The notes beneath the pieces were generated by a model that was given only the letters and a program-made list of their open reading frames with translations, ran no database searches and had not been told where the DNA came from. Shown piece by piece: positions 6,256 through 50,296 of a stretch of DNA of 64,000 bases (positions are counted from its first letter, which is position 1; each line of letters opens with the position of its first letter). The stretch lies in assembly GCA_964187785.1 (NCBI GenBank), contig OZ076409.1, positions 23,872,001 to 23,936,000 on the forward strand. Direction: 5' to 3'. The translations under genes were made by a program, and so were the position numbers. Source of the DNA: Amphiscolops sp. MND2022. Its lineage: Eukaryota.

Positions 6256-6637
6256 CTGCGGCAATCAACTTTAAATCAATGTCAGTGAGGCTCAATTCTG
6301 TCGTTTTTGTTTTAACAAAAATCCTGATACAGGTGGTTTTTCATTCAGCACACAAGAACTTTTTTATTTTGCAATCGAATTGTTGTTTCATTTACTTATT
6401 TTTTTGCTTTGCTTTTATGTAATTTCCGATTTTCGATGAAAAATCCAGCAAAAACTTATTTTTTATAAAGCCATTCATACAAATACTATATTTCATAAGA
6501 ACATAACATTTGACTTCGGAAAATGTTTCTAGAAAAGTGCTCCATGGAAAATAACTTGAACTTTATTTGAATGAACAACAGAAAGAAACGAGCAGGTCAA
6601 GAGTTTCAGGTCACCAAGCGTTCAAAGGTCAACTAAC

Positions 6638-30393: not shown

Positions 30394-30999
30394 GTGAGTC
30401 TAGTTTATTGTTGTTTATTTAAAAGAAAAATAAGATTTATTCCAACTTCAGGAAAATTCTGCAGAAAAACGCGAAAAATTTTCTATAGAGGCTTAGCTGC
30501 ACTGCAAATGCTGCATTCCCAGTGTGAAAACTCTTGCAACTCTTGATAAGAATCTTGGATATTCCTGGGTTTCTTAGTAAGAGTCTTGCCAAGAATCTTA
30601 CCAAGAAATCCACGAATTTGCAAGATCTTGCAAGATCGTGCCAAGAAATTCAAGAGATGAACGAACAAAAGTGAACGAAAACAAACAAAAACCGACGCCA
30701 ACTGCAGCTTGATCAGTGTACCTATTATGCCGTAGCTTTCCGCGCTACCAACCAAGCTATCACATTTTGAAATTCAATACTTTGTGTTGTGCTATATCCA
30801 ATACTTCATAGAATGATTGTGTAGCTGGTCGTGCGAACCACAGCGAAGTACTTGTAAACAAAATTACTGGTTGTTTTACAACTTATTTATTCTCTTGACA
30901 CTCTTGATAAGACTCTTACCAAGAGTCCTATCAAGAATTTCAAGAGGTTTGTGTGAAGCAAGAATAAACAAGATCTTATCAAGACTTTCAAGAGTAAAC

Positions 31000-31268
31000 T
31001 GTACTGACCTACATTAATAACCAATAGTATTTAGATGTTTATAGAATGTTCTAGAATGTACATTTATTTGTTATTGAATGATTGTAAATCTCTACTCCTT
31101 CAGAGAGAGAAAACTAATAATCAGTATTCAGTTGACTTCCTTTTTGTTCTACTCCTAACACCTCGGAATAGTTGTAATAAAGTAAGCTAGCTAGCTTGTC
31201 TCTCAGCCGCTTTTAGTAGTTGCGTATAAGACCATCAAAAACAATAACCAACCATTAAAAGCAGCACA
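31000..31268 (+). repeat. 5' LTR of giant element
   Basis: TGTACTGACC...GCAGCACA; 2 substitutions versus the 3' LTR; contains AATAAA. Confidence 0.97.
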
Positions 31269-31271
31269 ATT

Positions 31272-31284
31272 TGGTGCGACTTGT
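31272..31284 (+). promoter_or_regulatory. Primer binding site (TGGTGCGACTTGT; primer tRNA not assigned)
   Basis: TGG located 3 nt after the LTR end; the first 7 nt fit tRNA-Gly-type 3' ends but the rest does not. Confidence 0.65.
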
Positions 31285-31507
31285 AAAATTTTTCTTTTGC
31301 CTTTTCTCCTGGATGATTTCTCTTCTCTCAACAATCATACAAATACCACTCTCCATATTTGAAATTCTCTGGAATTGCAGTGAAATCTTTCTAGAATTTC
31401 TTGAAAGTTTGGTCTGTGACTTTCTAAATTTCATTAATAAATACATCATCGTTCGAAACACAATTTCTCCACTACAACAATCAACTTTAATATAACAATT
31501 TTCTTCA

Positions 31508-31840
31508 CTACCGGTTTATCACGTTTTCTAACACGTTGACACGGTTCTTCTTCCTGTTCTTCTAGCCATACCGGTTTATCACGTTTTCCATTACGTTGAA
31601 ACGGTTTCATTTCGGACTGATTTATCCATTGTGACACAGTTCTGTTTTTCTTCTTTTTCCAGACTGATTTATCCAAAGTGACACAGTTCTGTTCTCCATA
31701 CTGATTTATCACAGCTAATCCGGAAGCTTGTTGAAACAGTTCTCTGATGTTTGTCTGGTTTATCAAGGTTTTCTAACACCTTTGACACAGCAACGTTTGT
31801 CTGGTTTATCAAGGTTTTCTAACACCTTTGACACAGCAAC
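31508..31840. repeat. Degenerate repeat array in the leader (about 7 units with a G(G/A)TTTATC...TGACAC core; exact 46-bp duplication 31749-31794/31795-31840)
   Basis: Direct inspection. Confidence 0.8.
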
Positions 31841-33195
31841 TTTCTTCAATCCTGCTATCTTGAACGTCAGGTGGACTCCTGGTGTAATAGTTGACTGAGT
31901 GCATGTCCAACTCCGCTCACCTATAAGCACATACGTCTCAAGATCAACTTCGTGTTGGCAGAAAACCTGGATTTTCTACTTTTACGTTTCGGATCCCCTT
32001 TCTACAAAATTTCCTACAAAAAAATTTCAGAAATAGACTCTGAAAACATAAAAAAGGCAACCAAGACTAACTACCAAAAACAACCACGCACTATTCCCTT
32101 TCTTTCCTTATTGTCGACAAACAATACAAATAAATTCACAAAACTTAAATAATACAAATAACTTCAAAAATGTTCTCAATAACCAACAAAAATAACAATA
32201 ACAAATAAACTCAAACTTACCTCAAGTACTTCCAATAATAATAATTTTAACATAATCCTACAAAACAATTATTTTAACAAAATACAACATACAATTTTCA
32301 CAACTCTTTTGCTTTAACACTTAAAATAAGGCATGTAAATAACACAAACAAAGTAAAGTTAGTTTTCTACTTTCAGGCACCCACAATTCCTATCCCCTCC
32401 CGTAAGACTTAGCCAATCAGACAGCCTCACCAGCGTACTCTGATTCTAAGACTGACTAAAAACCTTAGTTAAGTGTAAACGTTTTCAAGGAGATTCGAGA
32501 GGACACCGAACTACGTTCGAATCTTCAAAATTCTCAGGAAGTAAAAGTAAAAGTAAAAGAAACAAAGATCAAATTTTGATCTTGATCAGTATTGATCAGA
32601 CTTTGGATAGTGGACGTTGATTGTTCAGAGTTCCACTCCTTTAGTCTTAAAACACACAACCCACTTAAAATTAAATCAACCTTAGTTTTTCTGGACGTGT
32701 CAGTAACCTTATGTTAGACACCTTAAAGTGATCCAGACTTGAAATAACATTTAGTTTCTGTTAGCAATCCTTTGAGATTGAATACAGATCCTACTGCACC
32801 CGCTTATTTCTTCTCTATCCTAAAATATTAACTTCTCAAATAACTTCAAATTACAATACAACTTATATGAACCCAAACCAAGAAATTTATCCTTTCAACT
32901 TTTACCTTCCACCAATTAGCTCACTTCAAAACCCTACACCAAACGATTTTGAAAGATTAATTGAACGATATCAACGATATTTCTTCTTTATCATAAGTCA
33001 ACAAAGAAATTACCCAAGAGCTCGAACTTAGAAAATCTTTATACAAGACATTTCAACGTCATAACCTTCACATTATAACATGTGGGAAAAGGTTACCACA
33101 GTAGTACTCATTACAACATACACGTTTTGTGTCTTATTTATAGTTTGTGTTCTTCTTGAAAAAATACCTACAGTGATAAGAGATAAACTTTAAAA

Positions 33196-36100
33196 ATGTC
33201 CTCAACGACAACCCCTCTACCTTTCCAAACTCCCGTCATTAAAAATGCAAAAGTTGTAAAATTAGAACTAAACCCATTTCTACATAACATTATTTCACAT
33301 TATACACAACCACTCCCATTTGAAAATGAACCACACACAATTGAAACAAACCCTCTTATTAGAGAACATTTGGACACATACCTTTTCTATATTAGATATA
33401 AAGTTTTAACAATCACCGAAGAATACCCAACTTTTCAAATATCCTTTCCTCAACAAAAACTTAACTCATCTCATATATACAGAAGAACAATAAACCCAAT
33501 AAACCTTCAAGTTCCTATTAAACAAGTTTTTCATGCTTTTCTAAATAATGTAAAAGACCACAATTTAGCACACGAAATTCCAAAATATAGTCCAAATGCA
33601 CTCGACGATCTTCAACGATGCATAGACAATTTCGACGTAGAAATTATTGAAACATTGGTTAATCCTGAAGATAACCCTCATCATTGGTTACAAGCTGATA
33701 TATTACGAATTCAAAATTTCATCTACCACTACCTCAAAGACCTAACATTAAATGACCAAACAAGTCCTCAGATCAAAGTAATATCTTTATTTCTCAGAAA
33801 AAATTTCAGATTTAATTATCAACTATTATGGTCTCAACAAGATCAATCTGCTTTTACAGAATTTCCAGATCATTTTACATTAGAAGAATGTTTACCATTC
33901 ATCATCAGTGAACAAAATGAACACCCTTACTTTCATAAACCACAATTAATTACAAAACAAACCTTAGATTACATACGTTTCGATCCTCTATTAATTACAG
34001 AAAATGATCTATTCCCAGATAATAGACCTTACCACTATCAACAAAATTCTCAAGATCAACAAAATTTACATTTTAACACTAACAATTCTACTGAAGATGA
34101 TAACACCGATCAGGAAAATGCAACCCAACAACAAAATCAACCTGAAAACTATAACGATAATGAGTTTACTACCCAAGAATCTACAATCTCAACATTTAAT
34201 CCATCACAAACAGGGACATCAACATCAGTACATACTCACTCCTTTAGAGTTCCCACTAGAGTTGTAAATCAAAGACAAAATATACATAGTCCTCAATCTC
34301 ATTTAGATACATCTCCAAACCGTAATATAACTTTTAACCTTCCACATACAGATGACATAAACGATGAAACCCATGATACATTACAATATAATACTATGAC
34401 TACATCTAGTGCTCAGAATACTTCTGCTAATGTTGCATCTCCAACAAGAACTACCTCTGATTCTACAAGATACATTACTCGACCTAGATATGATCCTCCA
34501 TCAATTCCCTCCGCCTTTCGCTCAAACAGATCGACCACTTCTAGTAACAATTTTAATGATAATCCTCAAACTTCCAACCGATATTACGATCCATTTAATT
34601 ATAACTTTTATCCTCCATCAAACACAACTACCAATACAAATATAAACCAAAACCACTCTCAAATTAATACAATTTCAACAACACAAAACCCCTTCATACA
34701 ATTATCAAATACCATTACGTCCCAGAATATATATTCTCAAAATCGAGGAACCTCGTGTACTTCCATTTCTTATTCTAATATTACACAGGATTCTCAAAGA
34801 AGACTTCATAATCCTCCACTTACACATATACCAACTGATCCTCTGTATCGAATGCATCCAAATCCAAATCTTAACCCTAATCCTAACCCATCCTCACCAA
34901 ATACAATCCAACATATACCTCCACCACTCACACAACAATTAGCTTCTTCACCCCAATATCTACCAATGCCACAAGATACCTTTATAAACATGTCCGCTTC
35001 AATACCAGAACCTATGAAACCTTTTGATGGTTTGGACCATTCTTACACCCCCGAAGAATATCTACAACAAGTCGAAGCAAGATTAACCTTCGCCATAGGT
35101 GAAGAACCTCAAAATAATCCTATAAAATACAAATCTTGGCATAATAGACGCATGGCTTACATACAATGTTCATTAATAGGAACAGCTCTCGATTGGTACA
35201 CTAACCTCCATATATCTTATAAACAACAATGGAATTCCTTTGTACAACTATTCAAAAAACAATTCTCATCTCAAAAAACTGCTTACTACGCTCAAGTAGA
35301 AGCTATGTCACTCATGAAAAAGGATAATGAAACAGTTCGCCACTTCGCCCTTAGAGTACAACAATTAGTTAAAAAGGGATGGTGTAATGAAAATGCAGCT
35401 ACCATAAATCTCAAAAATAATGAAATCTTTACAAAAGGGATACCAAAGAAGTTAAAAGATTTTGCCCATAAACGACAAGTTAAACTTGTATCAACATTAC
35501 TTGAACCTTCAATACCATTTCATACACTTGTTAGACATGTCGATTCAGAAGATATTGCTAATGAAAAAATCAGAACTAACGACTTAGCCCTAGAAATAAA
35601 CAAAGTATCGCTTGAAGAGGATACTAACAAAAAAGAATTTGAATACGAAGATCAGATAATGGTTACTCAAACTGGAGACCCAAATAACAAAAGCAAACCA
35701 GCGTATAGAAAATATTGTTCCTATTGTCATAAAAATAATCATAGTATTTCAAATTGTTATCAAAAACAACGTGATGACGAATACCAGAAATACAATAACC
35801 AAAGATCACGAACTCCTCAACAATCCTTTGTACAATATTTTCGCAGTAAACCTAATAATCCTCAGGAAAATCGAAATGAAAATACAAACTCTTATTCCTC
35901 AGATAATGATCGTAATAAATATAATCAAAACTACTATAATGATAGATACAGAAACAATGATAGATATCGTAGCAATAGTAGAGAATATTCGCAAAACAAC
36001 TATAGATCAAACTCTCGACAAAGATATTATAATCGATCCCGAAGTCCGTATAGATCTCGATTTGATAATTATTATCAAAGAAGAACTCCATCTAGATCTC

Positions 36101-37902
36101 CATATAGATCTCCATACAGAAATAACTCAAATTACAGATATAATTCTCGCTCAAGATACAGATCTCGTTCTCAATCACAAGAAAACTCCTTTAAACGATA
36201 TAATTATCCATATAGATCTCCATCAAGACCTAGAGATTTTAGATCAAGATCTAGAACACCCTCAAGAAACAGACAACAAAACAGAATAAATCAAGTAGAC
36301 GTTAAACCCCCAAAAGAAAATGATAGTACAAAATTTGAAATCCACACCTGTCAAATGACTGAAATAGCTAATACAATCACCCCTTATAGTTGGTTTTATC
36401 CACTATATATTCACGCCTCTGAAACAAATGACAACATATTACCTTCAAAATTAGAAATCTTATTCCTTTTAGATACTGGAGCTTCCATATCTGTTTTGAA
36501 TTTACCAACATTTCATGTAATTTCCAAACAATTAAACATCAATGTTCCAACTAACCTCCAAAACAAAAGAGCCAAAACTCTTACAGTTGCAAACCAAACT
36601 GAAGTACCAATAATACATTATATTTCGATGACCTGTTTCACTGAAGTAAATCACAAAACACGATCCTTCAATATCGAATTTGCAGTAGCAAATATCAAAT
36701 ACAACATTCTTGGAACACCCTTTTTCAAAAAGCACATCCAAAATATTGATTTTCAACAAGACATTATGACGTACACAGAACAACATCCAAAGCTTTCAAC
36801 AAAAACTACATTTTCTACATTTACAGAAAAGGATTATCCATATATTTCTTACATTTATACTATTAAATGTAAGGAACCAATTCACTTTAAACCAAGGTCA
36901 GGAAAAACCATACATTTTCCAATTAAAAACTATTCAAATCTACATTTTGAACTCGAAGATAATACGAAGTTCTACCCAACAAACCCATATACATATTTTT
37001 TACAAAAATTTAAAAATATCTTTTATTTCTTAGATATGATAGTCAATGAAAAAAGCAAAGACTCATGTGCAACTATAATTCAAAACTTTACATCTTACCC
37101 AGCTACATTACCACGAGGAATTATTGGATATATAGAAATACCTATTACGCAAACAACTCCTCCTCACTACAGAGTTAACGATGTAAATTCACTCATTCAC
37201 TCTGTAATACATGCTTATCACCCTGATACCACAACCCCGATTAAACAAATTCCATATACAGATATGAACTTATGTACTAGGGTAATACCACAATCCCTAT
37301 TAGAAATAAACAAGATAGAAATTAACGACAAAACACTTCAACTTCCTATACCTTCTGTTACTGGAAACCTTCGACCTTCAGATAAAATTCGAAAAGATTT
37401 CCCTCCACTACCCTATTCTACAGAAAACCAACCATTCATCAAGAAGTTCAATTTCGAATACTCAGATTTAACCGATACAGAATATGTAAATCTCTGCAAT
37501 ATTCTAATTAACAACCAAAATTGTTACGCCAAACATAAAAACGACGTAGGAAAAATTTCTACTCCTTTTCGAATTAGAATAAAAGATAATTGTAAACTTC
37601 ACGCACAAAGACCTTCTAAAGTACCTATCCAGTATAGAGATAGACTAAATAAACTTTTACTAGAACTCGAAAAATACAACATCATAAAACAAATTGGTTC
37701 GACAACAGATGCAAAACATACTATTGGAACAACATTTTTAAACCCTTTAATTATTATCCCAAAAGGAGACGCAATAAAAGTTGTTTTAGACGCAAGACAT
37801 CTAAACTCAAACACTAACCAAGAACTTGAATCTTGGCCTATTGAACCTTTAGCTCCTCAATTAGCTAGAGCAAATAAAAAAACAAATCAACTATTGATCT
37901 AA
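33196..37902 (+). CDS. gag-pol: Gag-protease-RT(N-terminal) polyprotein, 1568 aa
   Basis: Capsid-like LIGTALDWY...WNSFVQLFKKQF; CCHC knuckle CSYCHKNNHSISNC; RS-rich tract; protease LLDTGAS; RT start (IKVVLDARHLN). Ends at a 1-nt lesion in an A7 run. Confidence 0.92.
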   Translation: MSSTTTPLPFQTPVIKNAKVVKLELNPFLHNIISHYTQPLPFENEPHTIETNPLIREHLDTYLFYIRYKVLTITEEYPTFQISFPQQKLNSSHIYRRTINPINLQVPIKQVFHAFLNNVKDHNLAHEIPKYSPNALDDLQRCIDNFDVEIIETLVNPEDNPHHWLQADILRIQNFIYHYLKDLTLNDQTSPQIKVISLFLRKNFRFNYQLLWSQQDQSAFTEFPDHFTLEECLPFIISEQNEHPYFHKPQLITKQTLDYIRFDPLLITENDLFPDNRPYHYQQNSQDQQNLHFNTNNSTEDDNTDQENATQQQNQPENYNDNEFTTQESTISTFNPSQTGTSTSVHTHSFRVPTRVVNQRQNIHSPQSHLDTSPNRNITFNLPHTDDINDETHDTLQYNTMTTSSAQNTSANVASPTRTTSDSTRYITRPRYDPPSIPSAFRSNRSTTSSNNFNDNPQTSNRYYDPFNYNFYPPSNTTTNTNINQNHSQINTISTTQNPFIQLSNTITSQNIYSQNRGTSCTSISYSNITQDSQRRLHNPPLTHIPTDPLYRMHPNPNLNPNPNPSSPNTIQHIPPPLTQQLASSPQYLPMPQDTFINMSASIPEPMKPFDGLDHSYTPEEYLQQVEARLTFAIGEEPQNNPIKYKSWHNRRMAYIQCSLIGTALDWYTNLHISYKQQWNSFVQLFKKQFSSQKTAYYAQVEAMSLMKKDNETVRHFALRVQQLVKKGWCNENAATINLKNNEIFTKGIPKKLKDFAHKRQVKLVSTLLEPSIPFHTLVRHVDSEDIANEKIRTNDLALEINKVSLEEDTNKKEFEYEDQIMVTQTGDPNNKSKPAYRKYCSYCHKNNHSISNCYQKQRDDEYQKYNNQRSRTPQQSFVQYFRSKPNNPQENRNENTNSYSSDNDRNKYNQNYYNDRYRNNDRYRSNSREYSQNNYRSNSRQRYYNRSRSPYRSRFDNYYQRRTPSRSPYRSPYRNNSNYRYNSRSRYRSRSQSQENSFKRYNYPYRSPSRPRDFRSRSRTPSRNRQQNRINQVDVKPPKENDSTKFEIHTCQMTEIANTITPYSWFYPLYIHASETNDNILPSKLEILFLLDTGASISVLNLPTFHVISKQLNINVPTNLQNKRAKTLTVANQTEVPIIHYISMTCFTEVNHKTRSFNIEFAVANIKYNILGTPFFKKHIQNIDFQQDIMTYTEQHPKLSTKTTFSTFTEKDYPYISYIYTIKCKEPIHFKPRSGKTIHFPIKNYSNLHFELEDNTKFYPTNPYTYFLQKFKNIFYFLDMIVNEKSKDSCATIIQNFTSYPATLPRGIIGYIEIPITQTTPPHYRVNDVNSLIHSVIHAYHPDTTTPIKQIPYTDMNLCTRVIPQSLLEINKIEINDKTLQLPIPSVTGNLRPSDKIRKDFPPLPYSTENQPFIKKFNFEYSDLTDTEYVNLCNILINNQNCYAKHKNDVGKISTPFRIRIKDNCKLHAQRPSKVPIQYRDRLNKLLLELEKYNIIKQIGSTTDAKHTIGTTFLNPLIIIPKGDAIKVVLDARHLNSNTNQELESWPIEPLAPQLARANKKTNQLLI

Positions 37903-40900
37903 TGTATGCATATGCTCATACACCATTAGATGAAGAAACAATTAAACTTACAGGATTTTCATCCGGTGACAAATTATACGCCTTTATCCGTGGATTTTAC
38001 GGATTAAAAGGACTTCCAAACTTTTTCACAAAACAAATGTCAACTTTCTTTAGATCACTTATAGACAAACGTTCTGCGTTAGTTTATATAGATGATATTC
38101 TATTACTCGCAAATGAAAAACAAGAAATGTTTGAACTTATAAAAGAATTACATACAATAGCATCTCGAGAAAATCTCAAACTTGCACCTGAAAAATCGTT
38201 CTACATGTTACTCAAAGTAAAATTCCTTGGACATGAAATTGGTAACAACACAATTAAACCAATTCCATCCAAAATTGAAGCTATTGAAGGAATCCCATCA
38301 CCAAAAGAAAAGAAAGATGTTATGCAATTTCTTGGCAGTGATAACTTTTATTCAAAATTCATTGAAAAACTTCATATAAACCTTAAACCATTGTATACAT
38401 TACTACATGATGATGTTAAATTTCAATGGACACCTGAATTAGAAAAACTATTTCAAAATGTTAAAAACGCAATGACAGCAGACACTGAATTAACAATACC
38501 CAACACCACGCATCCATTTTTAATAACAGTAGATGCTTCGTTAGTAGGTTTAGGCGCAGTCTTATTCCAAATGAACGAAGAAAATAAGATGAAAGTAATC
38601 TCTTATAACTCCAGAATTCTCAATACACAAGAAAAAAAACTTTCAACTTTAGACAGAGAACTTCTTGCAATAGTTTACGCATTACAAATATATGAATTTT
38701 TGATCATTGGATCTCCTCATCCTATATATCTCTTCACAGATCACAAGCCTTTACTACATTGTTTCGCAAAGAAAGGAAATCTTAGTCCTAGATTCTATAG
38801 AGCACAAATGCAATTAACCAAATTTTCCAAATTAAAAATCATTCATACCCCTGGAAAAAACTTAACTGTAGCCGATATGCTTTCAAGAACCTTTACAAAA
38901 GAACAACTACAAGTACACCAATTACGACACAAACAATTACCACCTCAAATAGATTTCTCTATCATGAAAGATAATCAACTCAAACCAGTACATTATTTAG
39001 TAAAACATGAAGAAATAAAATATAATCAAAAGAATGATTGTCATCCTATCCTTGCTGACTACGGAGACGACCAATTCTCCATCCGTATAAATAACAAAGG
39101 AAAAGATATACATATAAAGCCTTTAGATTCCTTCTCTTTTCAATCTATTGTTCCATTCGAATCAAAATATAAAAAGCCTACAAAAAAACAAGCAAAATCT
39201 CTTTTACAACAATCGACAATTTTTAATGATACTGACATTCTTAGTGATGAAGATGAAATAACACCATCAAATAATATCCAACAACAAAACTCGAACATAG
39301 TAAAAGAATACACCCTTGCTATACAATATCCTACCAAATCTGACTATTGTACACAACAAGTTCCATTTTTTGATCCATCCTTTTTCAAATACAAAAAATA
39401 TTTTAATTACTTCTTCCTACCAGAAGATACACAAATAACCATTGAAACAATAAAAACTCAACAAAATCAAGATACTGTTTTACAAAAGGTTTACCAATGG
39501 ATACTTAATAATGAAAGACCCTTACAAAAAGACCCAACAATTGCAGCTAACTCTTTCTTATTAGTATATTACAAACTCTTCAACCAATTATATATTAATC
39601 ATGATACAAAAATTATTCACATAGATTATGCTAATCTTCACGATTCCAACCCGAATCAAAGAGACAAAATATGTCTACCATTTAAACTTTTCCACACAGC
39701 TGTTAACAAACTTCATGCTCATGGACATTCAGGAATAAAAATATCCATCAAAGCTTTCAACCAATTTTACTTCATACCGTACCTGAATAAATGGATGTCA
39801 ATATTCATCCATGATTGCATTGAATGCCAACAAAATAAACATATTAACCAAAAATTACAAACTGCATCTATACAAACCTTCTCAGAAAATGCTTCATATT
39901 TTAATTACCGAATATCAATGGATACAAAAGGACCTATAAACCCACCATCAAATCAAAATTCATACATTCACGTTATAGTAGACGCTTTTAGTCACTTTGT
40001 AGTAACAGTACCTATAAAACAAAATAATGCTCAAAACGCTGTTAACTCATTACTACATCATTGGATAACAAAATTTGGACCTCCTGTATACCTAGTTACC
40101 GACCGTGGAACAGAATATATTAATTCAGAATTTGCAAATCTTTGTACCACAATGGGAATTAGACATTCACCAAGAACTCCTTATGCACCATGGACAAATG
40201 GTTTAGTTGAAAATCAAAACAGAAATCTTGGAACTCATCTCAGACTTTTCTTACGTAACACTCCAGAAAATTGTTCAACTCAAGTCCATATGTATGCTTA
40301 TGCACATAATTCACAACCATTTTCTGAATTAAACTTATCTCCATATGAAATAGTATTCCATACTATACCCAGAATTCCAATCAACTTTGAACTCAATCTC
40401 CAAAGAGATACATATAGAAATTGTACTTCTCAATATTGTCAAGAATTACCACTTCATACACACTATGACAAATCAAATCTAAATCCTTTCTTTCATAAAA
40501 TTTTATCTAAACCAATTCCACAATGGATCTTAGCTACTGAAATTGCTATGATACAGATATACCATACGGTATATGAAAACACAAAAAGAAAGATTAATTC
40601 CTATGCTTATTTTAACAAAACATATCACAATCCAAGACCCTTAGATATTGGTACATTTGTACTAAAAAGAAATTTTCTTCATGTTCATTTTTCCGATAAA
40701 TTAAAACCTCTCAGAATTGGCCCATTCAAAATTATTAACAAACTCTCCGATATAACATATGAAATTGTTAATCAAGATGGTTATACATCGCACATACATA
40801 GAAATCATTTAATTCCTTACTATCCAAAAGAACCAGTTATTTTCCCTTTCATACAACAATATAACCCTCATTTATTTAATGACTGTCATTCAAATACAAA

Positions 40901-41231
40901 CGATCAAATAATTAACTCTGATGAAGACAAATTTACAGACGAAGAACAATTTCCTTCCACAACATTTAATAAAGAAACGGATATACCATCCACGATTGAC
41001 TTGCAACCAGAACCATTTAACCAATATTCTTCATTTCCATATAAACAAAAAGAACAAATTCCTCAAAATACCTCCCTGGATAACCAATCAGATATTCATG
41101 ATTATGATAATTTTATTAATCCCCGAAGACACTCCTATAATAGATACAATTTCCGCCCACAACCAAGAAAAGACTACCGACTCTTCCTTGGTGAAAAGGA
41201 TATAATTTCACTTTCTCAAAAATCCTGCTGA
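37902..41231 (+). CDS. pol: Pol continuation: RT (YIDD), RNase H, integrase (HHCC, DDE, GPF)
   Basis: VYIDDILL; TVDASLVGLGAVL...RELLAIVYAL; HAHGHSG...CIECQ; MDTKGP, TDRGTEY, NGLVENQN; IGPFKI. Lies in the -1 frame relative to ORF1. Confidence 0.95.
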   Translation: MYAYAHTPLDEETIKLTGFSSGDKLYAFIRGFYGLKGLPNFFTKQMSTFFRSLIDKRSALVYIDDILLLANEKQEMFELIKELHTIASRENLKLAPEKSFYMLLKVKFLGHEIGNNTIKPIPSKIEAIEGIPSPKEKKDVMQFLGSDNFYSKFIEKLHINLKPLYTLLHDDVKFQWTPELEKLFQNVKNAMTADTELTIPNTTHPFLITVDASLVGLGAVLFQMNEENKMKVISYNSRILNTQEKKLSTLDRELLAIVYALQIYEFLIIGSPHPIYLFTDHKPLLHCFAKKGNLSPRFYRAQMQLTKFSKLKIIHTPGKNLTVADMLSRTFTKEQLQVHQLRHKQLPPQIDFSIMKDNQLKPVHYLVKHEEIKYNQKNDCHPILADYGDDQFSIRINNKGKDIHIKPLDSFSFQSIVPFESKYKKPTKKQAKSLLQQSTIFNDTDILSDEDEITPSNNIQQQNSNIVKEYTLAIQYPTKSDYCTQQVPFFDPSFFKYKKYFNYFFLPEDTQITIETIKTQQNQDTVLQKVYQWILNNERPLQKDPTIAANSFLLVYYKLFNQLYINHDTKIIHIDYANLHDSNPNQRDKICLPFKLFHTAVNKLHAHGHSGIKISIKAFNQFYFIPYLNKWMSIFIHDCIECQQNKHINQKLQTASIQTFSENASYFNYRISMDTKGPINPPSNQNSYIHVIVDAFSHFVVTVPIKQNNAQNAVNSLLHHWITKFGPPVYLVTDRGTEYINSEFANLCTTMGIRHSPRTPYAPWTNGLVENQNRNLGTHLRLFLRNTPENCSTQVHMYAYAHNSQPFSELNLSPYEIVFHTIPRIPINFELNLQRDTYRNCTSQYCQELPLHTHYDKSNLNPFFHKILSKPIPQWILATEIAMIQIYHTVYENTKRKINSYAYFNKTYHNPRPLDIGTFVLKRNFLHVHFSDKLKPLRIGPFKIINKLSDITYEIVNQDGYTSHIHRNHLIPYYPKEPVIFPFIQQYNPHLFNDCHSNTNDQIINSDEDKFTDEEQFPSTTFNKETDIPSTIDLQPEPFNQYSSFPYKQKEQIPQNTSLDNQSDIHDYDNFINPRRHSYNRYNFRPQPRKDYRLFLGEKDIISLSQKSC

Positions 41232-41415
41232 AATACGGAATACAGAAAGAAATACACACAAAAAAAGTTTGAAAGAAAGAAAAAGTTTGAAGCTTAATGC
41301 GAAAATAAATGAAATATTTTTCACGAATGAGAATAAAAGAAAGAAATCCTAATTGATATAAAACTATAACTATTTTACAAGCTGAAACTAACTATCATAA
41401 CGCAACGATTTCAAA

Positions 41416-42872
41416 ATTGATAGACATATTCACTCACCATCATCAACTACAAATAACTCTTCTTCTAGTTCAACACATTCACTCCAAAGATTACCTGAAT
41501 ATACAGCATATTTAAACTCAGATACAGACATACTGGATTCCTCATCCTCAAATCCCAGTCCATCCGCTCCATATACTCCTGATAGAGTACCAACAACACC
41601 CACTAATACACCTATATCCCAAACTCAACCACAAATATAAACAACTCAATCACAACCTATTTCACGAAATCTAACTTTTTTAGAAACAAATTCACCACTT
41701 TCTGACTCTAATGATGAAACACCTACAATATCAAATACACAAGATACTTCAGATATTTTGAATAGACCTCCTCTTCCACCGATTACTACCACTCGTTCTA
41801 TTCATATCCCTGATCCTAGCTCAGTCCTACAATACATAAATTCTTGTCCACACAAAGTACCAACTGCAACGAAAACAAAAAGAAAAACTCCTTTACCTAC
41901 ATTATCACAAAATCTTGATTTACCATCATCAAGTAATATCCCAATAACATTTTTACCAGAACCTTCATTAAAATCACCAACGAAAAAATCACAACAATAC
42001 CCAACTCCTTCACCATCGGTACTAAGTTCCTTCACATTTTCTCAAATATATCCCAAGCTTGAATTACAACGTGTACATTCAACAACTACCTCTTCATTAA
42101 CAGATTTATATCATAAAGATAAAGACTCTGACTCAACTGCTAGTACTAGAGTACCAAGACATAATTATAACCTTCGATCTCAACCACAAAGAGATTCTCA
42201 AGAATTACAATCCTTAACTAGTTCAAGTACAAACTCAAGACTACTTCGACAACACGCCCAACCCAGATTGGACACTTCTTCTCTTTCCTCATCTCAGCCC
42301 ACTATACCATATTCTCTATCACTACCATTTCAAATCACATCAGGATTTGAAACAGCCTCTCTTCTTTCTGAAGAGCCAGCAACTATATCAGATAGCGCAG
42401 CTAATTTTTCACGAGTTTACTCACCTAGTTCAATAGCATCAAACTCCTCTATACAATTACCTGAATTTTTTTTAGAAGAATTCTCAAGACCTCCATCGCC
42501 AAATCCTCACGAATATCCTATTCGTGTTAACTCAAAAATTGTTCGCACGCTTAACGAAGATCCTCGATACACGGTATTACCTGCAAGATTTATAAACAAT
42601 AGTTCACTCTCAACTCAAAAAAAAAACAAAGAGAAATACGAAGATTACAAGAACAACAACTCACATTAAAATTTGAAGTAGAAGTCACATTCAACTCGTT
42701 AGGACCTCATCCATTCTCTCTTTCAACAAGAGTAGCACATAAAACAACCCCATCACCATTCATTGTTACCTCCATTTCCTACCTTTGTGACGCAGATTTA
42801 CCTGAGATTAGAACAGGACATATAAACTTTTTTAATCCCTACTCAGGACTCAATTATAGATCAATATTTTAA
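41416..42872 (+). pseudogene. Accessory ORF3 (~485 aa reconstructed): Ser/Thr/Pro-rich N-part with PSAP and YNLR motifs plus ~120-aa globular C-part
   Basis: The 41758-42669 frame extends back to an ATT in start context (tcaaaATTg) with one TAA at 41638. A frameshift in the A-run at ~42620 continues QREIRRLQ...NYRSIF* to 42872, 2 nt before the env ATG. Confidence 0.7.
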
Positions 42873-42874
42873 CC

Positions 42875-45456
42875 ATGAACCAAATCACCTTTACCTTTCA
42901 TTTAATATATATAATACAAGTTGTTAAATACACGTATATAATAAATATAGTTCACTCTTTAGTTCACCCTTCAACTGTTCCCAAAGTTGACACCACCAAT
43001 TCCGAAAATCATATTTCAGACCAAGATCCTAACATTTTAAACTTAATGGTATCTCATTATGATTGTGCAAAACAAAATAACTTAAGACAATTCAGTTTAT
43101 TAAATGTAGAACCATGTAAACAAGCACCCTCAGATATACAACACACAAAAACCCAAGCAACAGTTTACGTTAGAGCAAAAGCCAAAAGAATAAAAGCCTT
43201 TAAATGTGAAGCATATATAAAGACTGAGAAAGTCTGGTGTTCACAAACATTCACATCTAGTAGACGATATGATCGTTTACAATGGGGACAAAACACATTA
43301 GAACTTCCAAAAATATTGGACCCTATTGAATGCAAAAATATGATCAGATATTTAAACGCGACTGATAGCGAAGAATTAAACAACTACAATATACAAAGCT
43401 CTTTCTCATTGTTCGACAATAGTAATTATCAAAACACAATTGAACGAATTCAGACACCATTTAGAGTAAAAAAATTAAATACATGGCATATTGGAACCTT
43501 CGTATTTGACGAAAATTATCCTGAATGGATAGTTAATGTTACACAAAATACATACTCTAGATGTCGATCAGACCGCGAACATTTAATTACCCGACAAAGT
43601 TGGAAACTTAGAATTGTTAACACCGCAATAGATTATGACGATAAAAACAATCAATTAATACATGACGGACACATATTACCATGTTATCATTCAGACGGAT
43701 TTTGTAAACCATCGACCAAAACTCCATATACATTAACACGGTTTGATGAAAAATTTTGCCTCATATTTCAACTTCAAGAATTCATTGGTAGAATGACACG
43801 AATCAAAGATAGATATTGGATAGAAACCGATACCTTCATTGAAACTTCAAACATCACACAAAAACTTCAAACCGAAGGAATACAAGGAAGAATATACCCT
43901 AATATAAAAACACCACAATCAAAAGTAAGCAACCCAAGCCTTTCTCGATTTGAAATATACCCAATTGCACAAACCTTCTGTGGAAAACCTGAACCATTAT
44001 TTTCAACACAATAAGATGACATCTTTGTTACGTACTTAGATGGTTTTGATATGAACACAGGATTACCAAAACCACACTCAATAATTGACCAAACAATTAG
44101 TGGAAATATAAAATATGATGATTCAAACAAAAGGTATATATTCCCTGCATTGAATATATCAAACAATTTCGCCACTTTAGACTATGATGCCCACATTAAT
44201 ACAAAGATTGATTTCACAATAAATCATGTATTTAAATCCATGACAGTACAAGAACTAAACACTCTTCATACAATATGTGAACTAGAAAGAACTCAACTGT
44301 TAACAATACTAGCAATGTCAGTTAAAAATCCCCAATTAGCCGGTTTTCTTTTAACTGGAAATCGTAGTAACTTTCTCTACGTTGAAGGATCTACAGCATG
44401 GCTGTATGATTGCCCTTATTTTATATCACCACTATACAAGGCAGATAAATGCTTTGATAGAATTCCTATACACTACAGAGAAACGATAATGTATGTTGAC
44501 CCAATAACAAGACAAACTTTTAACAACGCAACACCAATTGAATGTGGAAATAACCCACAAAATATAATAGAATTAGATCCAGATTCCAACGACGGAGATT
44601 TTTATGTGTTAACACCAGAACCACTCAAACGAGAAGCACCACAAATGTTTAAACCTACCCAAATTAAAACAACAATCACTCCTAATACATTTACCGCCCA
44701 AGATGCCGGTATATACTCAAATGCAGAATTAGATCAATTCTGGAATAGAGTATTATTTGCTAAACATTCAGACACAACTCTCCAATTACTTGGAAAATCA
44801 TTAAGCTATGATTTCATTTCAATGCATAATGAAAAACACTCATACTCAGGACATAATCCCTATAATCATTTAAGGATTGGAGTACATGACCACTTGTTAA
44901 ATCTTTTACCACTTTTTAACCCTGACTGGTTCAGTCAAGCATTCATTAATTTCTTTGGATACCCATGTTATGTTTTAACCCAATGTGGAATTTATTTTTC
45001 AACATTCCTTTTCATTAGAGAAGCTTTAACATTTTTACTCAAATTCTACAGAACAATTAGCATAAAATATAATCTCCAAAGCAACATTTCCATTTTGAGT
45101 TCAATAGCCCATGGATTTTTTAATATAGTTACATCGGAAATGGTAACCGATTTAAATAATACAGGAAAACAAAAACGGATATATACTAAACACAAAATTA
45201 CAACAAGTGAAAATGATAATATCCTATTACCGGAAAAAGAATTAAACAATAAACGAAGACAAGACACTCTGATACTGACTCCCCTTATTTACCTCCTAAA
45301 TATTCCAGTAAGAACTCAACATTTCAATATCCGCAAAAGACACTCCCAACTAATGTAAACGATATTAATTCTCAGGACTATGACCCAATAATGTCAAATG
45401 TAATAGCTGTACCGGAAAGTCCTGCTAAAGTCTTTATAAAATTCAATCCCTCCTAG
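42875..45456 (+). pseudogene. env: Envelope glycoprotein, class III fusion protein-like (herpes gB / chuvirus G type)
   Basis: Hydrophobic N-terminus; YDC...FSLLNVEPC, C-x10-C; ICELERTQLLTILAMSVKNPQLAGFLLTG...GSTAWLYDC; C-terminal TM at ~44942-45040. ORFs 42875-44014 and 44051-45358 are one frame broken by a single TAA; a tail frameshift near 45260 leads to the stop at 45456. Confidence 0.85.
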
Positions 45457-45876
45457 CTGAAAAGCAATAACAAAAAAAAACAAATTAACCTCAAGAAAAG
45501 TTCACAAAATTATCAACCACATTCTTCTCAGTTTCAACTTTCATTCACACCCAAATTCTCACTCGGACCGGTCTCTCCTTTTCTACTCAACTCAACTCTC
45601 AACCAGAAGACTTCAACTGCTGGATTTTCAGTCCATCTAAACAACCGAAATCACAGAAGTTTATATTCCTGGAATAGATGCCACTGTGATTGTTGATGTT
45701 TTCAACCCATCATTGACCCAGTATTCCCATATTGTAAGTACAATTTAAACTTTAATTTTAACAAACAATTTAATGGATAGAAAAGACATAACAAAATTTT
45801 TCCTTAGTATTAGAAATAATGTAATCAAATGTTATAATTATTATTTTAGCTCTACAAAAACACGCAAGTTTAAATA

Positions 45877-47155
45877 ATGGAATCCTTGCCCGAAATTCTA
45901 ATCCCTCTGAATTGCTTGCAACCCCTTTGAATATAACTATTCAACAAAATGTTAACGAAGACAATAACTCTTCCTCCAACTCTCAAGACCCTATAGAAAA
46001 TATCCCTATTGAACAAGTAGATCATGTTAACACAAGATCTCAAAAATAAAAGTACCCAGATATAACCGCAGATAAAACTTTTATGGAATCTGGCGCTTGC
46101 CCTCCTTTCATAAAACCAATTAAACAAGATGAAGATAGAGATTGTGCTTTAGTTCCTATTCTCTCGTCGAAACAATTCACATTTCAATCTCAGTTAACTT
46201 CGTTATACATGATTCCAACAAAATACAAATTCATCATCAGAGAATTTAAAAATGATTATCATACATCAATTGCTTCAAAATTGATTACCCCATATGATTG
46301 GTGGTTAAACAATAAAGTGAAAATTTTCTCACTTCAATACAACTTCCTCAGACCATCTCCGTATGATCTTCGAACAGAAGAAAATGATGCAAATTTTTTG
46401 CCATATCAAATCAAAAAGGCCCACCATATGACTTATCAAAAGTTCCTTCAATATAAAGAGCCCGATAATTATATATTCTCGACTCCAAATATACATCGCC
46501 ATTCACTTTCAACTCAGAATATTTAATAGATCATACCAAAACAAAAGGAAAACTTAGAAATTATGACCCGCTGAAACAAAGTTTTCTCTTCCTTCCAAAT
46601 GATAACCCAAAAAGACCAATCATTGTTCCACAAGAATACCTCATTCTAAATGACGATTCGTTACTACAAGAAGATATACCTCAACATATATCTGATCCTC
46701 TTCCTCCACTTCAACAAATAGCCTCTCAACCATTGGGAGACTGTGAAAAGTCTTATTTCCACGCAATGATCAAAAAGGGATATTCAAATAATGAATTAAT
46801 TTTCATTATTTCCCACCTGCTTTCACTTCTTACAAATGGAAATCACAAAGAATATAAAAAGACAAAACAAGAATCGCCTAAGAAAACCAAAAATGATATT
46901 CCTCAACCACAAAGTTTTCGCCCAACAGATGAATTACAGAAATATACAGAAATTCTGAATATCATAAAACCGTATCATCATCCAAACCGAGATATTCTTA
47001 TAACAATCGCTGAAATCGTAAATACCCTTGAACAAGCTCGAAGCATAATACAAAATATCGTATTTGATACGACAAGAATTAGCCAATCAGCTTTGTGCAT
47101 TCGCACATCCTTAGACGAATTCAACTACACTATTGAACAAATGCATCGATCTTAA
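45877..47155 (+). pseudogene. Accessory ORF5 (~425 aa reconstructed), unknown function
   Basis: ATG at 45877, then fragments 46083-46526 and 46733-47155, joined through two frameshifts and one stop; same A/C-rich codon bias as gag-pol. Confidence 0.55.
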
Positions 47156-47676
47156 CTGCTAATTATGGGATAATAGCTTTAAAGTTGTTAACACTTATCA
47201 CTTAATCTCTTAACAACCTGTCAAAATTAATTGAATCTACACGCATATGCCTGCTATGCATGATTCTAATACATGCTTGATATTAAAATACACTTTTAAA
47301 ATGAAATAACATAAAAATTTCAATCACGACATAAAAATTTTCAACGAAATTCTTCAATTGCTCCTCCTTTTAATGGACCGATTTCAACAAATAAGTACTT
47401 ATATGAAAGATATTTAAATACCCTTCAAAAGACTTTCAAAATACAACAACTTAATTCTTAAAATTAAAAAGTTATAACATCACAAAATTCAATAAAAAAA
47501 TGTCAACTACGAAATTCTATTTTCAAAGGAACTTTATTGTAAACAAACTAATCTATTTTAGGTGAATATCGTCACAACTGCTTCTTCAGCATTCCTTCCT
47601 CCTCTCAGGTCACCCATTCAAGAAGAATTCCGAAGTATCTTCTACAGCTTTCAACGAAATTTTCTCATTCTTCAAT

Positions 47677-48153
47677 ATGACAACTATCCACTCTGGCGAC
47701 ATTGACTGCCCGATAGCTCCTTTTCTTTCAATCTCTTCAGCTCGATTGCGATCCTTGATCCTGAAAAAGCATTTAACGACATTAAATGCGCAGCTTCGAA
47801 CAGAAAAAAAGGCAGACCCACATCTTACAAGGATGATATTGCTTAATATGTTCCAAATATTCCAAATAACAAGAATAAATTTCGACCAATGTCTCCATAT
47901 TCATAAACATCCTGACACTTATTTAACTCGAAAGGATGCCACTACCCAAACAGGACATACCACCATCAAACCCAAGCGTTTAATACGAACTCTATCCAAT
48001 AGAATGCGTTCCGAAATGGAAAAACAACGTCTAAATTCGTATTGGCCCTCAGATGACAATGATGACACTGACGAAGACCTTCAAAAAGATCCCCCAGAAG
48101 CACTTATAGATGATAATTACCCACACAAAACATATACTTACGTTTCCTTCTAA
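47677..48153 (+). CDS. Accessory ORF6, 158 aa, unknown function
   Basis: Intact ATG-to-stop ORF inside the provirus, downstream of a branch/acceptor-like ctaatctattttag at 47548-47561. Confidence 0.45.
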   Translation: MTTIHSGDIDCPIAPFLSISSARLRSLILKKHLTTLNAQLRTEKKADPHLTRMILLNMFQIFQITRINFDQCLHIHKHPDTYLTRKDATTQTGHTTIKPKRLIRTLSNRMRSEMEKQRLNSYWPSDDNDDTDEDLQKDPPEALIDDNYPHKTYTYVSF

Positions 48154-49188
48154 TATCAACAGACGCCACCAACAGCACCCGTCTACTCCCATCTTCGAAT
48201 TCCACATCTTCAACGAGCAACAGATCAGCACCCATCTTCAACTTCACCGCCGCCCAACAGTTGCCCACCTTCATTCATCTGCTGGCCCTTCTTCTTCCAT
48301 CTTCCAATCGTCCATCGTCACCCACATGCTCAGCCAAAGATGATCGATGAATAATAATAAAGAAAACTCAAAGAAAAACATTGTGCATGATAACATTTCG
48401 AAAAAGTTTCAAACTCATCTAATACGTAGAATTCAAACTCTCATCTAAATTATTCATTATGTAGTTATTATTTCAAATTTCATCCCCACCCACATTTATT
48501 TGCCCAAAAATTTTTATTCACACCTGTACCGATATTTATTTGCTTTATTTTTAAAGAATAATTAGTAATAAGTATTATTTTTCGGTGCTATCCTACCCAA
48601 CAAAAAATTCACAATTATTGTCAACAAATCTTTTCAAATTTCAACAAAACCAGCTCCAAATCAGATCAAGCACATTGTTCAGATCAAATTCGAATAATGA
48701 CAGACCCAAGTTCTCAATGTTTTCAACATTTGTTACATAACAAACCCGCCAAAGTTAATTACAACCTGAAATCTTTTCAAACGTATTTCACGTTCGAAAA
48801 AAATTTTTTCTCAACAATATTATTTCTTTGACTCTTTGACCTCTAACTCCTATGATGTTTGCTCACGTTTGTTCAATGCGAAGTTCATTCAAAACTTCAA
48901 CAGAAGCATAAAATTGAGCATCTACCAGTTCAAAAAACAAGCCGACGAAAGCATAGTGAAAAAGAACACTTTGACGCTTTTGAACTGTAGTCGCACCTAC
49001 GAGGTGTCAATCAAAATTTTGACAAATTCGAGGTACACCAATGAGTCGAACTTACACCACTTTTAACGAGACTTATGCCAATCATCCATCAAATGAAAAA
49101 TGTTAACTAGCTGAAACGCTAAGAACATTTAAACAAAAAATTTTTCTTCATTTCAATTAATGATGCTACTTTAAAATTTTCTTTTATT

Positions 49189-49204
49189 TAAAAACCGGGA
49201 TGGA
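49189..49204 (+). promoter_or_regulatory. Polypurine tract
   Basis: AAAAACCGGGATGGA immediately before the 3' LTR. Confidence 0.6.
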
Positions 49205-49473
49205 TGTACTGACCTACATTAATAACCAATAGTATTTAGATGTTTATAGAATGTTCTAGAATGTACATTTATTTGTTATTGAATGATTGTAAATCTCTAC
49301 TCCTTCAGAGAGAGAAAACTAATAATCAGTATTCAGTTGACTTCCTTTTTGTTCTACTCCTAACACCTCGGAATAGTTGTAATAAAGTAAGCTAGCTAGC
49401 CTGTCTCTCAACCGCTTTTAGTAGTTGCGTATAAGACCATCAAAAACAATAACCAACCATTAAAAGCAGCACA
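49205..49473 (+). repeat. 3' LTR of giant element
   Basis: 267/269 identical to the 5' LTR; followed by TSD AAAC. Confidence 0.97.
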
Positions 49474-49863
49474 AAACGGGAATATGTAAGAATATGCAAG
49501 ATCTTGGCAAGAGTTCCAAGAGTTTTTACACTGGGTTATCATTTAATCAGCATGTGATAATCTTTGGTTTTAAAATAACGCCAACTCGAAAGTAGCTACC
49601 GGCTTGAGAGTATGATTTTTGAAACAGACATCTGTTTTTCGTTTTGTTCAGTTAGACTGAGAATCTTCAGCAAGGTATACTATTTAAAATATATCTAGTG
49701 AGCTTGCCGTACTTATGTACCATCGACCTTTGTATCTCTGGTCATTTTCCGCCCTCACAATTTCTATTGTGTAGAAGGAGGAAAATCATCATCTGTGTTT
49801 TTTCCCAAATTCCGCCAAGAATCCATTTGTGATATATCGATTAATGATATATATTCTATTCAA

Positions 49864-49942: not shown

Positions 49943-50069
49943 ATTTTTTTCTGTTTTCCCAGGCAGTACGGCGTCTTTATACTTTTTTTTTGCTATACGA
50001 GTGTGGGAGAAAACATCCCGGAGTTTAGCAAGCTTCTTGTTTCGAATTCCTTGTTGACATTTTTATCAG

Positions 50070-50296
50070 ATCCCGACAAACCAACCCTCACAAATACTTT
50101 CTTGAACAACACAATCATAGAGCTGAAATGGACCCTGGAATATGGCTCTGCCGATGAGTACACTGTAACCTTTGAACCACCCCTGGAAGATTCAACTCAT
50201 GGAACAATCGGGTCCACCAAGGAAACAGGATTCGTCACCACTTCGCCTGAAGCTGTCTTCAGCAACTTGACAAACCATGCTGTCTATATTATAAAG
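50070..50296 (+). CDS. FN3-repeat TM protein exon
   Basis: (Y)PDKPTL...IELKWTLEYGSADEYTVTF...FSNLTNHAVYIIK; ttttatcag| acceptor, phase 1/0. Confidence 0.85.

Follow-up and report, generated by a model that had tools for sequence, protein, structure and literature searches.

A 64 kb stretch of genomic DNA from Amphiscolops sp. MND2022 (positions 23,872,001–23,936,000 of contig OZ076409.1, assembly GCA_964187785.1), termed here the window, carries a single long terminal repeat (LTR) element at positions 31000–49473. The element is 18,474 bp long and has an internal region of 17.9 kb. It can be described with good confidence as a defective member of a family of 18–19 kb Ty3/Gypsy (Metaviridae) elements that is present at high copy number and was amplified recently; the elements resemble endogenous retroviruses and carry six genes. 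What is new, provisionally, is the presence of conserved accessory genes and the size of 18–19 kb in a Metaviridae lineage that bears an env gene. A preliminary description of this DNA had proposed a lineage of enveloped, multi-gene retroelements, and that proposal is supported by additional genomic copies, by sister families and by constraint on two of the extra open reading frames (ORFs), ORF3 and ORF5.

Genes of the window copy were defined from plus-strand stop-to-stop frames together with Pfam matches, and all are on the plus strand. The gag-pro gene and the N-terminal part of the reverse transcriptase (RT) are at 33196–37902, in a frame (33187–37902) that in this copy ends inside RT. The rest of RT, RNase H and the integrase are found in another frame at 37878–41231, and the frame change within RT is at ~37878–37902. 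The gag-pro translation begins with an N-terminal extension of ~650 amino acids (aa), which is followed by a Retrotrans_gag domain (aa 659–730), a CCHC knuckle and the protease motif LLDTGAS; no solved structure was matched by sequence in the gag-pro region. Pfam domains in 37878–41231 are, in order, RVT_1, RT_RNaseH, Integrase_H2C2, rve and Integrase_p58_C. The domain order typical of Gypsy elements, noted earlier from the sequence, is seen by Pfam and motif from gag and the protease DTG through RVT_1, RT_RNaseH and Integrase_H2C2 to rve.

About 8 kb of same-strand coding sequence lies 3′ of the integrase, as had been claimed, and consists of ORF3, env (Pfam PF24664), ORF5 and ORF6. ORF3 (41401–42869) comprises 489 codons in open copies; the window copy has a stop at 41638–41640 and an early end at 42669. 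In open copies the env gene (42875–45453) has a product of 858 aa, counted from its Met; in the window copy there is a stop at 44012–44014 and an early end at 45358. ORF5 (45874–47155) has 431 codons in open copies. In the window it shows a stop at 46047–46049 and a frame change at ~46469–46526, and the region 45825–47155 is split into three pieces with no match to a Pfam family. ORF6, a 195-codon frame at 47566–48153, is open in the window copy; its product is probably 158 aa long and starts at the ATG at 47677. No paralogy among the element's own proteins was detected at E < 0.01.

The element is present in many copies. The assembly searched comprises 1.07 Gb in 1,929 contigs. A search with the LTR gave 1,370 first-look candidates, and all 40 that were scored are ~100% identical to it. 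With the env DNA sequence 3,663 candidates were obtained, of which 40 of 41 scored are full length at 98–100% identity. There are at least 40 near-identical copies of this family, termed family A. The window element was compared with nine further copies from eight contigs. All nine are colinear with it from LTR to LTR at 97.4–98.7% identity, with one stretch at 96.0%, and the copy-specific differences are small deletions (three copies), an internal duplication of 2.8 kb (one copy) and a leader insertion of ~0.9 kb (one copy). The duplication repeats ~2.8 kb of gag-pol corresponding to window positions 36588–39435 (L025:8532-9071, L026), and the leader insertion carries a 268 aa frame not found in the window element (L029:418-1221).

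Target-site duplications of 4 bp are perfect and copy-specific in 10 of 10 copies, and the two LTRs of a copy differ at 0–4 of 269 positions. Because the duplicated target sequences differ and the LTR pairs are so similar, the copies are independent, recent integrations. The recent insertion proposed for the window copy, whose LTRs differ at two positions, is in line with this. In family A, gag-pro-pol is a single frame of ~2,680 codons (window 33187–41228) that is uninterrupted in one of the ten copies. With the window copy included, ORF3 is open in 4/10 copies, and env (a frame of 863 codons at 42860–45453 across the family) and ORF6 are each open in 6/10. ORF5 is open in five copies of ten; in a sixth, which is split at a piece boundary, it is open in both parts.

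Related families with the same layout occur in the same genome. A protein search with Env returned 67 proteins, among them representatives of two clusters, P0007 (1,758 members, 60% identity) and P0023 (424 members, 54%). Both clusters are encoded in the Amphiscolops genome: for each, 36 or more of 50 scored places match at 96–99% identity, and most are free of stops. Families B and C were defined from one fetched full element each. The family B element is 18,134 bp with LTRs of 421 bp, and that of family C is 18,825 bp with LTRs of 340 bp. The order pol-ORF3-env-ORF5 followed by one further ORF is kept in both. In tblastn comparisons with the family A proteins, pol shows 45–63% identity and env 61% (B) and 54% (C). 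ORF3 is located between pol and env with 41% and 35% identity (E 4e-58 and 6e-29), and ORF5 is found 3′ of env, also with 41% and 35% identity (E 6e-86 and 7e-58). ORF6 gave no tblastn match in either family; at its position are unrelated ORFs of 179 aa (B) and 318 aa (C). Eight more copies of B and C have an open ORF3 in 8/8, an open env in 8/8 and an open ORF5 in 6/8. The preliminary description had pointed out that a post-pol region missing from other copies would speak against the element as drawn; the region is present in 9/9 full-length copies, and its gene order is that of two sister families.

The gag-pol junction is not uniform in the elements read. It is a continuous frame in family A, a family B copy has a single in-frame stop (L038:8511-8515), and in a family C copy pol is in the −1 frame with an overlap of 60 nt (L042, oriented, 3614-3674). 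With one copy read per family, these differences may represent either translational strategy or mutation.

Comparison between the families shows protein-level constraint on ORF3 and ORF5. Synonymous sites are saturated, with a proportion of synonymous differences (pS) of 0.63–0.76 between families. The proportion of nonsynonymous differences (pN) is 0.42–0.47 for ORF3 against a pS of 0.63–0.70, and 0.41–0.45 for ORF5 against a pS of 0.73–0.74. For env and for the C-terminus of pol, pN is 0.26–0.33 each. As protein-guided alignment biases pN downward, each pair was re-aligned against 20 codon-shuffled versions. The shuffled controls gave pN values of 0.50–0.56 and a mean identity of 23–28%, and ORF3 and ORF5 fall outside all 20 controls in every pair. 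Neutral evolution of the extra frames, which the preliminary description had named as a possible refutation, is rejected for these two genes; ORF6 is conserved only within the family A clade.

ORF3 is rich in Ser, Thr and Pro, is disordered and comprises 420–490 codons across the families; the C-terminal ~110 aa are more ordered. Conserved motifs are IHIPDP, PRHRYNLR, LLRQHAQP, TSGFETASLL and SRPPTPN..DYPLRVN. The motif PRH(R/N)YNLR is invariant and is found once per ORF3 in families A, B and C (near position 42150 of the window). A further property of ORF3 is the lack of a Met codon, which is seen in family A (489 aa), in four of five copies of family B (418 aa) and in family C in four full-length copies (477 aa) and one partial copy. 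In the B copies, by contrast, there are 12–15 Met codons in env and ~10 in ORF5. From the pol stop to the env ATG, ATG triplets are also scarce in all three frames when set against a first-order Markov expectation: 2 versus 8.9 expected in ORF3 of family A (P 0.007), 4 versus 10.8 in B (P 0.018) and 5 versus 10.2 in C (P 0.06). By the same measure, gag-pol, env, ORF5 and ORF6 each have an ATG count equal to or above the expected one.

The simplest reading of the ATG depletion over ORF3 is that ribosomes scan through this stretch to the env ATG. A possible expression scheme is as follows. The full-length RNA would serve gag-pro-pol, and subgenomic RNAs, probably spliced, would be the templates for the genes downstream, in the way known from complex retroviruses. 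ORF3 would lack a start of its own and, as a downstream exon, take its AUG from further upstream, in the manner of CERV of Cer1, or it would use a near-cognate start codon. Leaky scanning through the ATG-poor stretch of ORF3 would then bring ribosomes to the env ATG on ORF3's RNA. A candidate splice acceptor 67 nt 5′ of the ORF6 ATG (near 47609) has 12 pyrimidines of 12 and the sequence CAG|G, with no ATG in between. A weaker candidate acceptor precedes the env ATG by 28 nt (near 42845) and falls within the ORF3 codons for the conserved NPYSGL. A precedent is found in Cer1, where, in the part of the source covered, CERV is made from a spliced mRNA with gag exons and has its C-terminal half encoded by the ORF 3′ of pol (PMC10309623). 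Drawn from sequence features and analogy, the scheme taken as a whole is tentative and its chances are put somewhat below even.

Alternatively, ORF3 might not be a gene of its own and could be an extension of a neighbour, either a C-terminal tail of the integrase, joined on by removal of the gap between the two, or an N-terminal leader of Env that is attached by a splice or a frameshift where the two frames overlap. An extension would be consistent with the missing Met codon in all three families and with the position of ORF3, which begins 170 nt past the pol stop and overlaps the start of env by 10 nt. The conserved C-terminal NPYSGL of ORF3, which covers the candidate acceptor just 5′ of the env ATG, would also fit. 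Against a tail on the integrase, every reading frame of the A-rich, 169 nt gap that separates pol from ORF3 is interrupted by stops, and three ATGs are found in it. Against a leader on Env, ORF3 and env are in different frames, and in all three families Env starts at a Met of its own, with a hydrophobic stretch behind it that resembles a signal sequence and would be buried in such a fusion. The extension is unlikely, and ORF3 is better regarded as an accessory gene.

Another explanation is that the element is an ordinary gag-pol-env element of the errantivirus type, whose additional frames would be mere passengers, or relics in decay, of no use to it. No known domain is present in ORF3, ORF5 or ORF6, ORF6 is not conserved across families and the pN/pS ratio within a family is uninformative; all of this could be expected of passengers. 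On the other hand, ORF3 and ORF5 are open and similar in families whose env genes are only 54–61% identical and whose synonymous sites are saturated, and ORF3 stays open in every one of the eight additional copies from B and C, ORF5 in six of them. Genomic matches to ORF5 are also largely free of stops, 69 of 98 scored with one ORF5 homologue as query and 92 of 94 with another. ORF6 itself has 254 homologues in databases, mostly of 158 aa counted from Met38, at 63–95% identity and with long invariant blocks, so that both length and blocks are kept down to 63% identity. Passenger status of the extra frames is therefore considered highly unlikely. ORF6 is likely a gene specific to the family A clade with a product of 158 aa, as judged from these homologues.

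The Pol protein aligns best, among chains of solved structure, with Ty3 Gag-Pol (7q5b, E 1.4e-49) and Ty3 RT (4ol8, E 8.4e-33); the next matches are from a caulimovirus (1.2e-23) and foamy virus (3.4e-15). By these best structure-chain matches, Pol is Ty3/Gypsy-like (Metaviridae).

Env matches Pfam PF24664, 'Monjiviricetes_fusion', with E 8e-25 for the window copy and 5.6e-26 for an open copy. No other Pfam family was matched, and none of the F type appeared at E ≤ 1. Hydrophobic stretches are found at the N-terminus and, as a C-proximal anchor, near residue 709; a tail of ~130 aa follows the latter. There are 16 Cys residues and eight N-glycosylation sequons, and an RxK/RR site was not found in the sequence. 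No solved structure was matched by sequence with either a protein or a profile query, and among relatives sought in IMG/VR 69 pattern hits gave 0 confirmed. An AlphaFold2 model built from an alignment of 10 sequences is poor (pLDDT 40.9). When this model was compared with 48,161 chains, the first six matches were glycoprotein B (gB) of human cytomegalovirus (HCMV) twice (Z 7.0), Chandipura virus glycoprotein (G; 6.5), post-fusion HCMV gB (6.5), gB of herpes simplex virus type 1 (HSV-1; 6.3) and rabies virus G (6.2). Four further gB or G entries are among the first 23 fold matches. In the portion of PMC13524379 covered, the chuvirus-like glycoprotein is described as structurally gB-like and is used as a bait of the HSV/gB type (section 14). 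On the basis of the Pfam match, the fold list headed by gB and G and this published statement, the best reading is that Env is a putative type I membrane glycoprotein of the class III group typified by chuvirus glycoproteins and herpesvirus gB. The class III env of the preliminary description is in agreement with the PF24664 match and with a fold list led by gB and rhabdovirus G, though at Z values below the noise guide of 8.

The genome contains other, more distant env families of the gB type, for example at C1:15508443-15510398 and C4:82308365-82310347. One distant homologue, P0071, has 39 scored genomic matches with 29–31% identity and frames of 713–822 aa, of which 30 are stop-free.

ORF5 encodes 430–575 aa across the families and has a conserved core, with 69 invariant columns among eight sequences. 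Databases contain 267 homologues, many of 430 aa, at 68–98% identity, and an ORF5 profile detects 604 representatives at E ≤ 1e-3. One database representative is only 44–50% identical to anything in the present genome; the ORF5 gene family therefore exists outside this genome as well. Among JGI metagenome contigs, 124 pattern hits to ORF5 yielded 0 confirmed relatives. Membrane-like segments are absent from ORF3, ORF5 and ORF6. The ORF5 and ORF6 proteins might act as accessory regulators or as host-interaction factors, for example in RNA export, in expression or in countering silencing. This is a guess by analogy, made because the proteins are soluble, conserved and positioned like retroviral accessory genes.

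A different origin for the 3′ genes can be envisaged, namely capture of the whole env-ORF5-ORF6 block from a negative-strand RNA virus of the chuvirus type, with ORF5 as a diverged nucleoprotein. The genomes of chuvirus-like viruses have the order G, nucleoprotein and small protein. Env belongs to the Monjiviricetes glycoprotein family, and ORF5 (~430 aa) and ORF6 (~160 aa) resemble the viral layout in size and order. The ORF5 protein itself gives little sign of such a source. At E ≤ 1 its Pfam search returned one hit at chance level, and no Pfam family is common to 76 members. The comparison with predicted viral structures in BFVD gave 0 matches at E ≤ 0.001 with a poor query model, and no solved structure was matched by sequence. 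Capture of the block is more doubtful still than passenger status.

That the post-pol 8 kb arose at this locus by nested insertion or through chimeric assembly, for which the unusual length is the sole reason, has a negligible probability, as 9/9 copies on eight contigs are colinear with target-site duplications of their own, composition is uniform and the sister families are alike. GC skew is −0.27 to −0.41 in all 2 kb bins from 32001 to 48000, and AT skew is positive there; flanking bins mostly have a GC skew of −0.10 to +0.08. The uniform skew therefore indicates one compositional regime for the entire internal region. With colinear copies, uniform strand composition and an order of genes shared by sister families, the post-pol region is integral to the element.

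A wider interpretation can be placed on the six-gene family. One lineage of invertebrate Metaviridae may have independently evolved a genome like that of complex retroviruses, with six genes including those for three conserved accessory proteins without known relatives, a spliced start-less ORF3 and bicistronic expression through leaky scanning with a gB-type Env; the several families that carry it would be replication-competent, or recently so, and possibly infectious from cell to cell. This is possible rather than probable. Against the description of the family and its proposed expression, a number of observations can be set. The window copy is defective, with RT, ORF3, env and ORF5 broken; by our estimate, the few disabling changes in 18 kb are as expected of neutral decay after insertion at an LTR divergence of 0.7%. 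No Pfam family is matched by ORF3, ORF5 or ORF6, and neither ORF3 nor ORF5 has an Atlas cluster. ORF5 has no sequence match to solved structures, and its AlphaFold2 model from 76 sequences is poor (pLDDT 53.2); in the only confident part of that model VIA-align relates residues 213–271 to small barrels of the SH3/Tudor/KOW type at Z ≤ 6.0, which is in the noise range. The fold matches of Env all have Z < 8, the tool's guide to noise, from a model with a pLDDT of 41.

With respect to selection, the similarity of ORF6 across families does not exceed that of the shuffled controls. Within family A, pN/pS is 0.38–0.93 versus 0.67–0.86 in non-coding pseudo-frames and the two are inseparable; nearly all variants among the ten copies are singletons, which leaves this test, made both pairwise and with singleton versus shared classes, without power. 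With respect to expression, the ATG depletion is moderate (per-family P 0.007–0.06 by the first-order Markov model), and the relatedness of the families means that the tests are not independent. A search of the leader and early gag in all three families gave no splice donor that agrees with the consensus at 8 or more of 9 positions. Splicing and leaky scanning, like the acceptor candidates, are predictions from sequence. Finally, the status of the lineage as undescribed is provisional and comes from text searches.

The ends of the element are well defined and correspond to those first described. A repeat finder applied to 29000–51500 gave one direct-repeat family, 31000–31269/49205–49474. The 5′ LTR (31000–31268) and the 3′ LTR (49205–49473) are both on the plus strand, 269 bp long and bounded by TG..CA; they differ from each other at two positions. 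Target-site duplications of the sequence AAAC are at 30996–30999 and 49474–49477. A sequence similar to a primer-binding site, TGGTGCGACTTG, which begins with TGG, is 3 nt past the 5′ LTR (31272–31283), and a polypurine-like tract of 15 nt, AAAAACCGGGATGGA, adjoins the 3′ LTR (49190–49204). The duplications and both of these motifs were read directly from the plus strand. No tRNA gene is present within the window. In the parts of the PMC13524379 supplements covered, the 3′-end 8-mer was absent from the table of primer-binding sites and the peptide motifs of the element were not found, which is a weak negative.

Between the 5′ LTR and the gag ATG at 33196 is a leader of 1,927 nt (31269–33195), in accordance with the 1.9 kb first estimated. 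It is poor in ATG: an open family A copy has 8 versus 18.2 expected (P 0.006) and the family B leader 4 versus 11.9, by the first-order Markov model. Seven YGRTTTATCM motifs form an array at 31512–31811 of the leader with a spacing of 37–60 nt. There are 33 matches to the motif across the window, of which these seven are packed within 300 nt. The array includes a perfect tandem repeat of two 46 bp units (31749–31840). The same seven motifs are found in two other family A copies and are absent from the leaders of B and C. The family C leader has an array of its own, five or six copies of a motif that contains TTCTGTACTAATCAC, and family B has neither array. The leader arrays may be lineage-specific enhancers or insulators. 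On the other strand the core of the family A motif reads TGATAA, which we take to be a GATA-factor-like sequence.

Other mobile sequences are found in the window. A second, unrelated Gypsy-type element is on the minus strand at 15174–19972, where a 974 aa frame shows RVT_1, RT_RNaseH, Integrase_H2C2 and rve; two frames of 277 and 332 aa upstream on its strand have no Pfam match. At 61091–63998, on the plus strand, a gag-like frame matches DUF1759 (E 8e-11) and Retrotrans_gag (E 3e-5) and is followed by a 479 aa frame that runs off the window end. This is probably another retroelement. In the final 2 kb bin, AT skew reaches 0.34 and GC content is 45%, and the maximum AT skew of the window, +0.37, is at 10001–12000. 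Just 3′ of the large element, at 49943–50512, a 189 aa frame has a sub-threshold fn3 match (E 3.8e-4), and a minus-strand frame at 5725–6264 has a sub-threshold homeodomain fragment (E 1.5e-4). From these weak signals in the flanks, the element may be in or near a host gene.

The significance of the element concerns its accessory genes, since it is by such genes that 'complex' retroviruses are told apart from 'simple' ones. From outside the vertebrates we know of no more than scattered examples, among them the CERV protein of Cer1 and the small ORFs carried by certain fly elements. Here ORF3 and ORF5 are kept beside a gB-type env across families with saturated synonymous sites, a third gene is clade-specific and the usual size of an element is doubled. 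The families offer a natural system for the question of how retroelements gain and express regulatory genes and of what limits the size of their genomes. They also raise the question whether Gypsy elements with an Env need helpers, for example for RNA export, assembly or evasion of silencing. In addition they point to a blind spot of surveys, since pipelines that require adjacent pol and env and a length of ≤10 kb would miss or truncate such elements.

Complex retroviruses, i.e., lentiviruses, deltaretroviruses and spumaviruses, have accessory ORFs on both sides of env, in the interval that follows pol and in the one that precedes the 3′ LTR, together with a long leader. The extra ORFs of the present element are placed likewise, its leader is also long, and bicistronic expression with leaky scanning upstream of env is plausible. 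The element differs from these viruses in that its Pol is nearest to that of Ty3 and its Env appears to be of class III and not class I. None of its accessory proteins shows similarity to a retroviral one.

Gypsy elements with a gB-type env have already been described (Chary & Hayashi, eLife 2026, PMC13524379). Ty3/gypsy elements with an Env of the F or gB type are found in most animal phyla, often as many recent copies, according to the part of PMC13524379 covered. The premise of the preliminary description that the env of errantiviruses is only of the baculovirus F type is out of date in view of the gB/chuvirus type across Metazoa reported in the same part of that survey (PMC13524379). In the element described here the F-type Env of the classical Errantivirus members gypsy, ZAM and Idefix was not detected, PF24664 being the only family matched. 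Similarities to the errantiviruses of Chary and Hayashi are a Ty3/Gypsy pol, gag-pol-env on one strand between LTRs, an Env of the chuvirus/gB-like type, probably class III, and many near-identical copies. In the sections covered, PMC13524379 annotates three ORFs and limits non-insect elements to ≤1,000 nt between POL and ENV and to regions of ≤10 kb; LTR-to-LTR spans are ~7–12 kb in the table rows covered, and the word 'accessory' does not occur in the main text covered. Unlike those elements, the present one has pol and env parted by 1.6 kb through ORF3, two genes after env and a length of 18.5 kb.

The giant Burro elements of planarians, which had been suggested for comparison, are not close analogues, as their architecture differs (PMC6431247, in the portion covered). 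Burro elements exceed 30 kb, encode one polyprotein of ~4,900–5,100 aa with an env-like region in frame between gag and pol, carry host-like BIR, BCL2, MATH and ankyrin domains and are present in thousands of copies (PMC6431247, same portion). Both are oversized invertebrate elements of the Gypsy type with an env or env-like region and extra coding capacity. The Amphiscolops element differs in having separate ORFs in the order gag-pol-ORF3-env-ORF5-ORF6 within 18,474 bp, and Pfam scans of its proteins gave no BIR, BCL2, MATH or ankyrin domain. The portion of PMC6431247 covered also gives the traditional size ceiling of retroelements as ~10 kb and places extra ORFs between pol and env or after env.

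Whether the layout had been described before was a concern of the preliminary description. Text searches of the literature, which covered the main survey in part and did not extend to Repbase and Dfam, brought up no lineage of invertebrate Gypsy elements in which several orphan genes are retained alongside env in diverged families. Two kinds of element come near to it. Cer1 is likewise a Gypsy/Ty3 element with an extra protein that the element needs; it has no env and one extra protein, and its splicing has been shown, whereas in the present element env is present and splicing is proposed (PMC10309623, in the part covered). LTR elements of bdelloid rotifers and similar cases contain captured ORFs, mostly single captures specific to one family and some with enzymatic domains (PMC5408684 and cases in PMC6431247, each as far as covered). 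The element described here differs from these in that two orphan genes, ORF3 and ORF5, have stayed alongside env in three families that are deeply diverged from one another.

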